Virus record (IMG/VR): IMGVR_UViG_2531839179_000017
Length of the DNA: 14,423 bases
Source: a virus
Lineage: Duplodnaviria > Heunggongvirae > Uroviricota > Caudoviricetes
Strand: one strand, 5' to 3'
Shown here in pieces: positions 2,860 to 14,423 of the stretch (positions are counted from its first letter, which is position 1; each line of letters opens with the position of its first letter). The notes under the pieces are model-generated. The model ran no database searches. It was not told the origin of the DNA and worked only from the letters and a program-made list of their open reading frames with translations. A program made the translations under genes and the position numbers.

Positions 2860-3199
2860 GCTCGTCCTCTTCTTCTGTTTCCGGTGGATTTTTACGGCGG
2901 CTTATCGGGTCAAAACCGAGCAAGGAGGCCATTTTTATCATCACTCTTTCAGCGTCGGATTTTGCGCTTAATGCGGGGTTTCTGCTCTCGCCGCCCTGAC
3001 TGTTAACAATGCTGAACCCGCGCGCCGCAAGGTCTGCAACGGCTTTCCGGTAAATGGAGTAGTTGACACAATACAGTTCCAGATTACTCCAGTCGGCGGG
3101 GGTAAGGTCTCCCCGTTCCGCAAGCTGCCGCGATTTTTCCCGCCACTGCTTCACGGCGATATCATCCAGGTAGGCGGGGGCTTTCGGTGGTCTTGCCAT
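2843..3199 (-). CDS. terS: Terminase small subunit (P27-family-like)
   Basis: 118-aa ORF, ATG at 3199; sequence MARPPKAPAYLDDIAVKQWRE...LELYCVNYSIYRKA resembles P27-family small terminases; sits immediately upstream of and overlapping terL. Weak Shine-Dalgarno. Confidence 0.7.
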   Translation of the reverse strand: MARPPKAPAYLDDIAVKQWREKSRQLAERGDLTPADWSNLELYCVNYSIYRKAVADLAARGFSIVNSQGGESRNPALSAKSDAERVMIKMASLLGFDPISRRKNPPETEEEDELDRLE

Positions 3200-3244
3200 G
3201 CTTATTTTTTCGCCAGATTATTTTTCAAAAAATTCCCGTGCATA

Positions 3245-3310
3245 AAAATTTGAGGAGGCGGTCGGTGCCCGGCGGGGTCGGGTTTGTCCTGAAAACGCCC
3301 CCCACCCCGT
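3245..3310. other. Candidate cos / packaging-initiation region in the HNH-terS gap
   Basis: About 290-bp gap between HNH stop (3489) and terS start (3199) containing a GC-rich block GAGGAGGCGGTCGGTGCCCGGCGGGGTCGGG flanked by AT-rich runs. In HK97-like cos phages the cos site lies between the HNH gene and terS. Position-based inference only. Confidence 0.3.
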
Positions 3311-3488
3311 CATACAGCCTCATCAGCGATTGCGGAAACATTCCATAACCTCGCGGTCACGGTCGGTTAATCGCTTCGCTGTGATGCGTTCTGCGCGTCC
3401 TGACGCTTTATCTTTATGCCCTGTTTCCTGTGTCTTCCATGCGTCACGCTGCCTTATAAGTCCACGGATAAGGCGGTTTTGTTCCCGC

Positions 3489-3929
3489 TCATTCATCAGC
3501 GTCATACATCCAGTTATTGCGGTTAGCGGCCCGTTCTTCCTCCTCACGGAATCCGCCAGCGGCACGCTTGCTTTTTGTTGCCGGATCAAGCCACTTCGTT
3601 TTCTGGTTATGACACGCCTGGCACAATGGCTGATGGTTCCATTCGGGCCAGAAGAGAACATCATCACCGCCATTAATCGGGATAATGTGATCCACCACCA
3701 CGGCGGGCGTATATATCCCCTTCTCAAGGCATCGCACGCATAACGGGTTTTTACTCAGATACATGGCGCGGTATTTGTCCCACTGTCTGGAGTACCCACG
3801 CGCGCGGCGGTGTCCTCGTCTGGCATCCTCTGCACGCCATGCCGCCCGCCTGTGCTCCTCACACTTGCCGGACTTCACGCGCCTGTTACAGCCTGGTTCT
3901 GTGCATCGTCTTAATGGTTGCCACGGCAT
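3489..3929 (-). CDS. HNH endonuclease (terminase-associated)
   Basis: 146-aa ORF, ATG at 3929; Cys-rich N-terminus (CTEPGCNRRVKSGKCEEH), catalytic-like DHIIP...N...W.E.NHQPLCQACHNQK motif; located directly upstream of terS as in HK97-type packaging modules. Confidence 0.8.
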   Translation of the reverse strand: MPWQPLRRCTEPGCNRRVKSGKCEEHRRAAWRAEDARRGHRRARGYSRQWDKYRAMYLSKNPLCVRCLEKGIYTPAVVVDHIIPINGGDDVLFWPEWNHQPLCQACHNQKTKWLDPATKSKRAAGGFREEEERAANRNNWMYDADE

Positions 3930-11129: not shown

Positions 11130-11343
11130 AACCCCCCCCATTTTCACAATCAGCAACAAGAATATTTTTAGCGTCATTCAGCGACCGCGTTGCGATGTAT
11201 CGGATACATTCCAGGGCGAACAATGTGTATTCCTCCCGTTCTTCCTTTTGTGCAAGCTCTGCCGTGCATTCAATATCAATAAGCGCATGCATCAGCGTAG
11301 TGAGTGCGGCGGCGGCTGCGTCCGGACGGATGTTATTGCACAT
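11122..11343 (-). CDS. Hypothetical small protein (paralog A)
   Basis: Start chosen at ATG 11343 (MCNNIRPDAAAAALTTLMHALIDIECTAE...) with GGAGGGG 6 nt upstream, overlapping the upstream stop; C-terminus ENGGGYA is encoded through the G8 tract. Confidence 0.5.
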   Translation of the reverse strand: MCNNIRPDAAAAALTTLMHALIDIECTAELAQKEEREEYTLFALECIRYIATRSLNDAKNILVADCENGGGYA

Positions 11344-11764
11344 GGTGTACCCCTCCGCATTTTTTTTCGTTAGAAATAAGCGTTCTTCTTTCCTGTTCAT
11401 CGCTCAGGAATACGCAGACCTCACCGCTAAGGCGTTTAAGTAAGCCGATGATTGCCCCTGATTCGCTGTCGGTCATCATGCCAGGGTAATCCTCTGCCAG
11501 TGCGCAAATAACTTCGATTTGGTGGGCGCGTTCTGCTGCCTGTTGTAGTGTGATTTCCTGGCTCATAAGCCTACCCCCTTGGCGAATACGGGCAGCGAAT
11601 ACCATCACGCAGCCAGCCGGGGATTGCTGGCGTGCTTCCTGTTCGCTGGTGGCCTCAATGGTAATCACGCGCGGTTGTGCCGTGCTCAGGGCGATAAAAC
11701 GCCAGATGTATTTATTCAGGTTGTGCGAGCCCCGCCCTTGCGGGTGTGTGGTATGATTTCTCAT
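11333..11764 (-). CDS. First gene of the early operon; N-terminal Icd-like (cell-division-inhibitor-like) region plus C-terminal helical domain
   Basis: Start chosen at ATG 11764 (GAGG 6 nt upstream); the track's longer ORF starts at a TTG inside the operator. Motif YIWRFIALSTAQPRVITIEATSEQEARQ...VFAARIRQ matches my recollection of Icd-like proteins of P4-type elements (unverified). Confidence 0.5.
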   Translation of the reverse strand: MRNHTTHPQGRGSHNLNKYIWRFIALSTAQPRVITIEATSEQEARQQSPAGCVMVFAARIRQGGRLMSQEITLQQAAERAHQIEVICALAEDYPGMMTDSESGAIIGLLKRLSGEVCVFLSDEQERRTLISNEKKCGGVHHVQ

Positions 11765-11861
11765 AGCTACCTCGATACTTTCGCTATCGTTGGTGGTTAG
11801 AAGCCCGGTTAGTGTTAGCGCACTGCCGGGTTTCGTCGTTTCTGCACCTTGCGCCAACAAG

Positions 11862-11913
11862 GTGTTGAACACCAATTTAAACCCAGGTGTTAAACACGTC
11901 AAGTGTTGAACAC
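11862..11913. promoter_or_regulatory. Triple palindromic operator (GTGTT-N-AACAC) spanning divergent promoters
   Basis: O1 GGTGTTGAACACC (11861-11873), O2 GTGTTAAACAC (11887-11897), O3 AGTGTTGAACACT (11902-11914). Minus-strand promoter candidate: -35 TTGACG (11902-11897), 17-bp spacer, -10 TAAATT (11879-11874), with O1 at the start site. Plus-strand promoter candidate: -35 TTGAAC inside O3, -10 CATACT (11928-11933). Confidence 0.65.
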
Positions 11914-11962
11914 TTATTTTTTTCCTGCATACTGCATTTGTTTTTTATGAGGGGTACACCAC

Positions 11963-12142
11963 ATGGCGACAAAAGCAGTAAACGCAAAATCACAAACCGT
12001 TGCGGCAAGGGTTCCGCATGAAGTTATGAACAATGTTGAGGCGGTAAAAATGCCTGGCGAAAGTACGGGGCAATTTGTTACTGCAGCATTAAAACGAGAA
12101 GTTGAATATCGCCAGCGGCGCAAGGCCAAAGAACCAGAGTAA
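11963..12142 (+). CDS. Small ribbon-helix-helix-like DNA-binding protein; candidate repressor
   Basis: 59-aa ORF (absent from track, under 60 aa): MATKAVNAKSQTVAARVPHEVMNNVEAVKMPGESTGQFVTAALKREVEYRQRRKAKEPE; GAGGGG 8 nt upstream of ATG; beta-strand, helix, G-x-S/T turn, helix pattern typical of Arc/MetJ/CopG folds; divergent from the early operon. Confidence 0.5.
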   Translation: MATKAVNAKSQTVAARVPHEVMNNVEAVKMPGESTGQFVTAALKREVEYRQRRKAKEPE

Positions 12143-12199
12143 TCACCATCAGCGCCGTGGTGTAAGGTATTACGGCGCATTGCTATGCAGGACAACACA

Positions 12200-12373
12200 A
12201 TGACCGATAAAGAATTGACCAAAACATTATCACCGGCACGGAAAAGACGGCGCAGAAAGATAGAACATGAATCAGAAAGATTCGCGCCATGTGCTTTTGC
12301 CCTTGAGCAATTCCTTAAAGAGTACAGGGAAAAGCGCTCATTGCAGGTATGGCAACGAACTGAACCAGACTGA
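12200..12373 (+). CDS. Hypothetical small basic protein, second gene of the divergent unit
   Basis: Start chosen at ATG 12200 (MTDKELTKTLSPARKRRRRKIEHESERF...) with AGGA 8 nt upstream; the track start at 12185 lacks a well-spaced Shine-Dalgarno. Followed by a plus-strand terminator. Confidence 0.45.
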   Translation: MTDKELTKTLSPARKRRRRKIEHESERFAPCAFALEQFLKEYREKRSLQVWQRTEPD

Positions 12374-12468
12374 TTGCATTGCCCACCAGCCTGATAGCGG
12401 CTATCATCCCCGTGCTTATGTTTGGGATCACACACACAAACGGCGCAGCGGGTTATCTGTTCAGAAAG

Positions 12469-12496
12469 GCGGCTCCATTTCGGGGCCGCTTTTTTT
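12469..12496 (+). terminator. Rho-independent terminator of the plus-strand small-gene unit
   Basis: GCGGCUCC-AUUUC-GGGGCCGC (8-bp stem including one G-U pair) followed by U7 at 12490-12496. Confidence 0.65.
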
Positions 12497-12642
12497 ATGC
12501 CTGAAAAACCCCAATTTTGTGGTTTTCCAGTCTCACCAGGGCGAACGAATCCCCGCCCACGTTCTGGCGTATATTCAATCTTCATGGTTATAGCTCTGTG
12601 TTCAGATGATTGATGTGTGGCGGCTGTGTGCCGCCAGCGTGA

Positions 12643-12831
12643 TTAATGAACTGCCTTGCAGCTATCCTTCCAGGCCAGAACCTCGGATAAAGACCAGCCA
12701 ACGGAACGACCGCCAAGTTTACGACGTGATGGGAATTGTCCGGCCTTTTCCAAGCGGTAGCGGCATGAGCGGCTAAGGCCTGTTAGCTTTTCGCATTCTT
12801 TTTCACGTATAAACCGATCAGTGCTTAACAC
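12643..12831 (-). CDS. alpA: AlpA-family phage regulatory protein (HTH; excision/derepression activator-like)
   Basis: 62-aa ORF: REKECEKLTGLSRSCRYRLEKAGQFPSRRKLGGRSVGWSLSEVLAWK matches the AlpA/prophage CP4-57 regulatory protein pattern; first codon is GTG at 12831 with AGGGGG 5 nt upstream. Confidence 0.8.
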   Translation of the reverse strand: MLSTDRFIREKECEKLTGLSRSCRYRLEKAGQFPSRRKLGGRSVGWSLSEVLAWKDSCKAVH

Positions 12832-13205: not shown

Positions 13206-14423
13206 TTATTTTCTTCTGGCTACTGGTAGCGTGGTTACGTTTTCATGTGTTCCCGCCAGTATCCCTAACCGCTCCGTCCACATATCCAGCGCATTGCGTT
13301 TAGCATCCAGATAACGGGAATGATTATAAACTCGCTGCATTCCTGGCATCTGGTGGCCTGTAAGCTGCTCCACGACATGCGGATCAACGCCTAAATCGTT
13401 CAGCATGGTTGTAAAGGTGCGCCGGATGTCATGCAGTGACCAGTGAGGATGATTAAGCCTCCTGTGCGCTAATCTTCCATACTGCGATACGCTGGCCTCC
13501 TGTTTCACTTCCCCCAGCAATAAGCCCGTGTGCCTGTTCTGCTCCACCAGCTGCGTGACGAACGGCAGGATCGCTTCCGGTATGGGCCGGAATATTGCGA
13601 CCTTCGTTTTGCTGTGCTCCTTCGGAACGGTCCATAGCATTTCCGTGAAATCCCACTCCCCGATCTCCGATAACCTCAGTTCTACCGTTCTGGCTCCGAA
13701 GACAATCAGGAGGCGGATTAACGCGACGTAGTAAGGGGAGAATATTTTTTTGTCCAGTGCCTGCAATAATTCGCCAAGTTCTTTGTTACTTAAGACACGT
13801 TCGCTTATATCCGGTTTTTTCCCAACGTCCGCCACGTTCAGATCGTCCAGAACGTTGCTGATTGCATAGCGCCGCCTACGGCAGAACTTAAGCGCCTGTT
13901 TGCACGCCTGTAGCACGAATCCGGCAGTAACAGGCGTTCGCTTTGCCACCTGGTCAAAACAGGCCAGCCAGTGCCGTAGCTCGCATTTATCCAGCGGCAT
14001 AGCACCAATCTGCTGTATTACGTGATTATTAAGTCGCCTTTTCAGGGCGATATAATCCACGCGGTTTTCCTTTACGTAATACTCAAGCCAGTAGGTGAGC
14101 GCATCGCCAACCGTTACCGGCTTTAACGCTTCCTGTACGGTGTAATTAAGCTCATGACGTGGATTTTTCCCCTCTGCCAGCCATGCGCGACACTGGGCGG
14201 CTTTTTCCCTGGCTGATTTCAGGCTCAGATCAGGATAACTTCCCAGCTTAATGCGTTCGGGTCGTGTCTCCCTTCCCGTTCCGGCCCTGTATGTGAAATA
14301 CCAGGTCAATTTCCCTGATGTTAAATATTTCACGCTCAGGTTTCCGCCATCACTATAAAACGTGTTTTTCTCCGCTGGCTTACCATGAAGTTTCCTTAGC
14401 AAGGTATCGCTCAGTTTGTTCAT
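13206..14423 (-). CDS. int: Site-specific tyrosine integrase (P4/CP4-57-type, N-terminal arm-binding domain)
   Basis: 405-aa ORF with ATG at the last window base (14423-14421); N-terminal DUF4102-like region (KLTWYFTYRAGTGRETRPERIKLGSYPDLSLKSAREKA), C-terminal catalytic region with HDIRRTF...LTGHQ...RVYNHSRYL (R-H-R-Y signature). Confidence 0.9.
   Translation of the reverse strand: MNKLSDTLLRKLHGKPAEKNTFYSDGGNLSVKYLTSGKLTWYFTYRAGTGRETRPERIKLGSYPDLSLKSAREKAAQCRAWLAEGKNPRHELNYTVQEALKPVTVGDALTYWLEYYVKENRVDYIALKRRLNNHVIQQIGAMPLDKCELRHWLACFDQVAKRTPVTAGFVLQACKQALKFCRRRRYAISNVLDDLNVADVGKKPDISERVLSNKELGELLQALDKKIFSPYYVALIRLLIVFGARTVELRLSEIGEWDFTEMLWTVPKEHSKTKVAIFRPIPEAILPFVTQLVEQNRHTGLLLGEVKQEASVSQYGRLAHRRLNHPHWSLHDIRRTFTTMLNDLGVDPHVVEQLTGHQMPGMQRVYNHSRYLDAKRNALDMWTERLGILAGTHENVTTLPVARRK

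Follow-up and report, generated by a model that had tools for sequence, protein, structure and literature searches.

A candidate ribbon-helix-helix repressor and its palindromic operators on the divergent promoters of a capsid-forming PICI of Escherichia coli

Three short palindromes that lie over back-to-back promoters in a satellite of Escherichia coli are quite probably the operators of a 59-aa ribbon-helix-helix (RHH) protein encoded beside them, and protein and sites together would form a repressor/operator cassette that blocks the early promoter of the element and regulates its own expression. The evidence is comparative throughout; that the protein does bind, which way it regulates and how a helper phage might come in are inferred.

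The DNA analysed (the window, 14,423 nt in all) is a capsid-forming PICI (cf-PICI) of E. coli, as indicated by Pfam and NCBIfam matches and by the PGAP annotation of a closely related island (L001; NZ_CM129862, strain SW070917), which is 96-99% identical and inserted in tqsA. One end of the window carries int and alpA; there is a replication module, and capsid, portal, protease and terminase genes are its own, with tail and lysis genes absent. This layout fits the description of EcCIEDL933 (bioRxiv 10.1101/2022.09.08.507074). Features to either side of the operator region are:

11333-11764, minus strand: Icd-like protein, first leftward ORF (NCBIfam NF033153, PHROGs, comparison with L001)
11963-12142, plus strand: 59-aa YlcI/YnfO-family RHH protein, the proposed repressor; specificity block at residues 11-15 (QTVAA)
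12200-12373, plus strand: second small gene of the rightward unit, 57 aa from the ATG at 12200 (PHROG 21027; annotated in CFT073)
12463-12497, plus strand: strong intrinsic terminator closing the rightward unit (RNA fold)
12643-12831, minus strand: alpA (Pfam PF05930, E 5e-18)
13206-14423, minus strand: int (Pfam/NCBIfam)

The leftward operon begins at the ATG at 11764 with the Icd-like gene and continues through small ORFs, DUF4222, a RepA-type helicase, an SSB-like gene (its counterpart in EcCICFT073 is annotated SSB), a PerC-family regulator, HK97-type capsid, protease, portal, connectors, HNH, TerS and TerL. Relative to L001, a 1-nt deletion near 11580 fuses the 66-aa Icd-like ORF in frame with the next ORF, giving 143 aa. 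Annotations of this protein, which heads the early operon, conflict: residues 1-63 match PHROGs 6196 and 1743, labelled 'transcriptional repressor', while the NCBIfam label is host cell division inhibitor. On the other side, transcription of alpA converges on the repressor unit, and the hairpin that the terminator at 12463-12497 would form on the minus strand is weak by RNA folding. Different pipelines draw three overlapping frames in 12138-12593, namely a 57/62-aa plus-strand ORF, a 108-aa plus-strand ORF that extends through the terminator, and a minus-strand 'Icd-like pseudogene'; only the 57-aa ORF (12200-12373) has family support, and both the 108-aa ORF (12267-12593) and the pseudogene called by PGAP in L001 (minus strand, 12138-12585) were rejected for want of a family match.

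Palindromes and promoters in the window and in related islands

The sites and promoters of the intergenic region are:

11862-11872, no strand assigned: O1 (site A), GTGTTGAACAC, reading AGGTGTTGAACACC in the window (direct reading and repeat finding)
11887-11897, no strand assigned: O2 (site B), GTGTTAAACAC, reading AGGTGTTAAACAC in the window (direct reading and repeat finding)
11903-11913, no strand assigned: O3, GTGTTGAACAC, an extra site of the GTGTTNAACAC lineage, reading AAGTGTTGAACAC in the window (direct reading and repeat finding)
11874-11902, minus strand: leftward early promoter PL, with -35 TTGACG (11902-11897), 17-nt spacer and -10 TAAATT (11879-11874) (promoter scan)
11906-11933, plus strand: rightward promoter PR of the repressor unit, with -10 CATACT (11928-11933) and weak -35 candidate TTGAAC (11906-11911)

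O1 sits inside a 13-bp palindrome, GGTGTTGAACACC (11861-11873), and the start-to-start spacing is 25 bp from O1 to O2 and 16 bp from O2 to O3. The palindrome has three exact copies, all inside 52 bp and nowhere else in the window. When one mismatch is allowed, GTGTTNAACAC matches four times on both strands of the 14.4 kb against 0.39 expected, a number reached in none of 200 shuffled windows. The fourth match (12821-31, at the alpA start) was rejected as chance because it is without counterpart in the relatives, none of which has a motif of its own near alpA. Directly left of O1 there is also an inverted repeat, CACCTTG...CAAGGTG (11845-11851 and 11858-11864), which has AAGGTG in common with the operator flank, recurs in L002, L023, L017, CFT073 and L004, and is predicted to fold into a hairpin close to where the leftward transcript has its 5' end.

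PL is the only leftward sigma-70-like site that the promoter scan found in 11600-12700. O2 occupies its spacer and touches the -35, and O1 starts 1 nt downstream of its -10 and covers the expected transcription start (about 11867). For PR the -35 is poorly defined; the best candidate is the TTGAAC within O3, 16 nt from CATACT. The distance from O3 to this -10 varies with a T-run (11914-11921), and the window has one more T there than L001, so the PR spacer differs in length between isolates.

Related loci were collected through the 59-aa protein in GTDB genomes (15 loci) and exact-protein look-ups (9), together with four E. coli variants and EcCICFT073, and were compared as a stack of the 120 nt upstream of the RHH ATG. 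The same operator/promoter layout recurs in about 20 related islands of six genera. Every relative has a site A about 102 nt before the RHH ATG (-102), where it abuts or overlaps the leftward -10. The position of site B is fixed at -77, and the bases next to it are GTCAA in 17 of 19 loci and TTCAA in one, the complement of an almost invariant leftward -35, TTGAC[G/A] (TTGAAG in L003); with 16-18 nt and a -10-like hexamer, mostly TAnnnT, this completes a PL-like promoter in 18 of the 19 related loci. The rightward -10 is kept in all but two loci, as (T/C)ATACT in most, 29-31 nt before the ATG, and in most lineages a third site, C, at -32 overlaps its last bases (-10/+1). Sites of the O3 type (-60/-61) are confined to the window, L002 and L025, with a degenerate one in L003; site C has been lost in the window and L002, and L003 and L025 have both. 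The spacing from A to B ranges over 22-34 bp, the site positions being locked to the promoter hexamers. EcCICFT073 itself has this module, with block QALKA, GTGTGGCCCAC twice and a degenerate third site; the only locus tags of its small genes are PGAP ones of the new style (C_RS30120, C_RS30125), which suggests that these genes were absent from the original annotation. Among 5426 complete E. coli genomes, 495 (about 9%) carry a cassette with the window's specificity.

The preliminary description of this DNA had placed three copies of an 11-13-bp palindrome at 11861-11914, and direct reading, repeat finding and the shuffles confirm both coordinates and description. Its placement of O3 on the rightward -35 candidate, O1 on the leftward start and O2 in the leftward spacer likewise holds in the window; as a general rule the overlap of O3 with the rightward -35 fails, since most relatives carry their autoregulatory site on the rightward -10/+1.

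Short repeats in satellites often mark a replication origin, attachment or packaging region, and the palindromes might thus be origin iterons, or a recombination or packaging site for a host or helper-phage factor. We regard this as very improbable. The sites keep register with the promoter hexamers and not with each other; a single host factor is excluded by the variety of cores, of which E. coli alone has at least four; the PICI origin is described as following the replication genes (PMC6092414); and phage records are virtually free of the protein family, a narrow one (82 clusters at 50% identity), as tblastn gave one match there to a close homologue, in a 16.5-kb 'induced prophage' that is itself probably a cf-PICI. 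Helper phages were rejected as carriers of close homologues on the same ground.

Operator cores and the 59-aa protein

The sites within one element change sequence together, and the sequence differs between elements. The cores seen are GTGTT[G/A/C]AACAC, GTGTCAGCCAC, GTGTGGCCCAC, GTGTC[G/T]GACAC, GTGTAAGACAC, GTGTAGACCAC and the 12-mer GTG[C/T]ACCC[C/T]CAC. Identity over the central 5 nt is 93% within an element and 43% between classes, whereas the outer GTG/CAC is conserved alike within elements and between classes (0.90 and 0.91). Within the window's own specificity group only the base at the dyad centre and the inter-site spacer vary, the half-sites being invariant. Such concerted change requires one recognition partner per element, as neutral shared ancestry does not yield this pattern.

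The 59-aa protein is the proposed partner. Outside a five-residue block, residues 11-15, its sequence hardly varies (MATKAVNAKS-xxxxx-RVPHE...GESTGQF), and the block matches the operator core without exception. QT[V/L/I]AA pairs with core TTNAA in Escherichia, Edwardsiella, Pectobacterium and Klebsiella; [K/R]KLEA with TCAGC in Xenorhabdus, Pectobacterium and E. coli; Q[A/S]LK[A/S] with TGGCC, EcCICFT073 included; K[K/R][I/F]DV with TC[G/T]GA; and QSVTA, QALRA and AQKKI each with a core of its own. Positions 12 and 14 change with the core, with K14 or R14, for example, accompanying G-rich cores.

The other products of the island do not follow the operators. AlpA invites consideration as the known regulator of Gram-negative PICIs (PMC6092414), and a one-mismatch copy of the motif stands at the start of alpA. 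It is, however, 100% identical in L017 and 98% identical in L018, whose operators are GTGTCAGCCAC and not GTGTTGAACAC, and only 31% identical in the Edwardsiella island L002, which has an identical 59-aa protein and identical operators; the lack of own motifs near alpA in the relatives also tells against it. The 12200-12373 product is 100% identical in EcCICFT073 and, together with DUF4222, in L018 despite their different operators, and no homologue of it was found in L002 (L019 has no rightward gene after the RHH gene). The Icd-like protein is 91% identical in L023, whose operator is GTGTAAGACAC. Because these four proteins are identical or nearly so across differing operators, they cannot be the specificity determinants; shuffled relative to the operators as they are, they were rejected as binders, and it is extremely improbable that AlpA or another of them binds the palindromes, whether in activating or in repressing the early operon. 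The preliminary description had named the 11963-12142 and 12200-12373 products and AlpA as candidate binders. Of these the first is retained on the covariation of core and block, and the other two are set aside. Its reading of the sites as repressor operators on divergent promoters is supported by the conserved positions in about 20 islands and the concerted site change, with the binder narrowed to the 11963-12142 product. For its further idea, that repression holds until the arrival of a signal from a helper phage, the comparisons give no support.

The operators and the gene are only 50-100 bp apart, and linkage by itself should therefore produce part of the covariation. That three sites change in concert, and where the boundaries fall in a mosaic island, argues for more than linkage, short of proving which protein binds. 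In L023, identity with the window is 90-97% up to 11859, drops to about 60% from the left edge of O1 and, after residue 36 of the 59-aa protein, returns to 83-90%. These boundaries indicate that the operators, the promoters and the N-terminal half of the protein were exchanged as one unit.

The protein belongs to the YlcI/YnfO family (NCBIfam NF041551; 59.7 bits against a cutoff of 30, residues 9-50), a name that PGAP also gives it in L001 and CFT073. Its fold of about 45 residues is strand-helix-helix, and the G-x-S/T/N turn between the helices of RHH proteins appears as G32-E33-S34-T35; among 31 homologues the first three of these residues never vary and T35 hardly does. In hhalign the GEST turn aligns with the G-L-S turn of CopG, and the register relative to Arc and CopG agrees with an RHH fold; one UniRef name in the family is 'CopG-like ribbon-helix-helix'. 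Among curated RHH families, Pfam gave only sub-threshold matches (CB_ParB_C and PSK_trans_fac, E 0.03-0.15), the PDB profile search with the 59-aa protein returned no RHH match, and in the AF2 monomer the N-terminal strand is not formed (pLDDT 57-68 there). K-12 YlcI (64 aa; L028 6251-6445, DLP12) shares 22% identity with the window protein and comes closest to the type found in the Klebsiella island L014; unlike the satellite genes, ylcI adjoins a lambdoid cos site and nohD, and a CCACGTCAA motif lies upstream of it too.

Small RHH proteins that regulate their own operons are familiar from CopG, omega, ParD and TacA. The rightward unit could accordingly be a self-contained module, a type II toxin-antitoxin system or an accessory operon, in which the palindromes serve autoregulation only and any effect on leftward transcription is incidental. 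This we think unlikely. Two of the three sites are on the leftward promoter (in the spacer and at +1) and in every locus keep register with its -35 and -10. The sites mainly target the divergent operon. In addition, the window has no partner toxin or partition gene. The downstream gene, of differing family and 43-248 aa in length, shows no toxin domain and was not found in L002 or L019, and in the 59-aa protein just a short basic tail follows the RHH fold, leaving no evident toxin-binding domain.

A candidate antisense RNA on the early leader

Between the leftward ATG and O1 the plus strand may encode a further regulator, a layer that was absent from the preliminary description:

11764-11845, plus strand: candidate cis-antisense sRNA, SymR-like; -10 TATGAT (11752-11757) with TG upstream, this -10 lying inside the first leftward gene; stretch with upstream elements 11749-11845

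In the first leftward gene, this conserved RNA of ~80 nt would be complementary to leader, Shine-Dalgarno sequence and start codon. Its features include two hairpins and a T-rich tail, and the terminator-like hairpin stands just before O1. The fold (-36.5 kcal/mol, z -4.6) comprises 24 pairs, 14 of them with compensatory changes, and the alignment holds 55 G-U cells against 2 A-C cells, which identifies the plus strand as the structured one. The TAnnnT -10 upstream is invariant in 16 loci.

The candidate has no Rfam family of its own. Matches to SymR (RF01809) are sub-threshold, at 33.3 bits in the window and 32-41 bits in L004, L023 and L025 against a gathering cutoff of 61, and fall at the equivalent place and strand in the four islands. 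The RNA resembles SymR in its presumed mode of action, and scores at this level do not establish family membership. As in SymE/SymR, an antisense RNA with two hairpins starts just inside its target gene and covers the start codon and Shine-Dalgarno sequence; the target in the window is the Icd-like gene heading a long operon, not symE.

RNA immunity of the P4 type (C4/isrK) was rejected, as Rfam gave no such match in the window. The int-alpA RNA motif (RF02996) likewise had no match in the window in the Rfam search; it scores above the gathering threshold only in L003 (5853-5921) and L022 (4045-4114).

Proposed mechanism and known regulatory systems

In an RHH strand, alternate residues face the DNA. 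We propose that dimers of the 59-aa protein read the variable central 5 bp of GTG-N5-CAC with residues 12 and 14 of the N-terminal beta-strand, and that the invariant GTG/CAC would be held by the invariant K9, S10 and R16. Protein made from PR would occupy O2 (spacer/-35) and O1 (-10/+1) and thereby exclude RNA polymerase from PL, so that the Icd-like, DUF4222, RepA-helicase and capsid/packaging genes would go unexpressed; because PL drives both the replication and the capsid/packaging genes, blocking it should render the island silent. Binding to O3, or in most relatives to site C on the rightward -10/+1, would bring about negative autoregulation. The locking of the sites to the hexamers, with variable spacing between A and B, suggests steric occlusion rather than strictly phased cooperativity. 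The plus-strand antisense RNA (about 11764-11845) would probably block translation of leaky leftward transcripts.

How the block might be lifted has to be considered in light of what is known of AlpA. Fillol-Salom et al. 2018 described AlpA as the activator of EcCICFT073, with alpA induced by the helper phage; overexpression of AlpA alone induces replication of this island, helper-induced AlpA is the only published induction route for Gram-negative PICIs, and the global repressor of these elements was called unclear (PMC6092414). Since AlpA overexpression alone suffices in EcCICFT073, the RHH protein can be no unbreakable block; the switch must be overridable, and the protein may be subordinate to AlpA. 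The convergent transcription of alpA and the weak minus-strand hairpin of the terminator make interference or read-through one possible link to induction: AlpA-driven leftward transcription might both lower repressor synthesis and read into the early operon. The same finding on AlpA, together with a weak PR -35 that may mean low basal synthesis, can be turned into a different role for the protein, in which it does bind the operators, as a Cro-like or late factor that damps early transcription after induction, and quiescence reflects the absence of AlpA alone. We consider this quite unlikely, on evidence that is not decisive, in that PR has a near-consensus -10 and does not obviously need another island factor, and the several immunity-like specificity types favour a role in maintenance or immunity.

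The closest analogue of the proposed repressor cassette is immI of P22, and the kind of system is ordinary. In immI the RHH repressors Mnt and Arc act on the divergent promoters Pant and Pmnt, and there is an antisense RNA, sar, in addition. The cassette proposed for the window would share with it a small RHH repressor, palindromic operators in the spacer and start of one of two back-to-back promoters, and an autoregulated divergent promoter; and sar, like the candidate RNA, is a short cis-antisense transcript that covers a ribosome-binding site within the repressed operon. Beyond the fold, no sequence relationship is detectable. The window has one protein and three 11-bp GTG-N5-CAC sites, whereas P22 has two proteins with 17- and 21-bp operators; the operon repressed would carry satellite replication and capsid genes instead of an antirepressor; and the window's cassette exists in many exchangeable specificities.

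Among satellites, Stl (Rpr) of SaPIs and Gram-positive PICIs acts at the divergent stl-str promoters and occupies an equivalent place on the map, its gene diverging from the replication/packaging operon, and is relieved by binding a helper-phage protein (PMC6092414). P4 resembles the window in being a satellite of enterobacteria that carries int and an alpA-like gene and has an RNA layer on the early leader, but its immunity factor is the CI RNA (PMC10111431), where we propose an RHH protein with operators.

With rather more doubt than confidence, we extend the proposal to a master repressor/immunity cassette of Gram-negative PICIs, EcCICFT073 included, in which the RHH protein and its GTG-N5-CAC operators would come in at least nine exchangeable specificities that set heteroimmunity between co-resident satellites, with AlpA-driven convergent transcription or a helper anti-repressor overcoming it and the SymR-like RNA as backup. 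If this is true, the cassette specificities would explain how related satellites co-reside without cross-repression. The literature search on YlcI/YnfO function found no account, nor did the literature searched on PICIs, of which coverage was incomplete, yield a description linking them to an RHH or YlcI/YnfO protein. What appears to be new is thus a candidate role for a family previously without an assigned function, in satellites thought to be without a repressor, with an exchangeable set of specificities. It would supply a concrete candidate, with defined operators, for the repressor of Gram-negative PICIs, and the first function proposed for part of an uncharacterised ('y-ome') E. coli protein family. 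The natural protein/operator pairs, five residues to 5 bp, may also be usable as orthogonal repressor parts.

In the E. coli island L017, the space from the first module to alpA is taken by a second, unrelated regulatory module in tandem (3100-3625). This module encodes a 59-aa protein whose N-terminus, PPFQFRLDP, is RHH-like, and has a long palindrome, TAATGTGTATATACACAT...ACACATTA, and a SymR-like hairpin of its own, an arrangement that suggests modular stacking of immunity cassettes.
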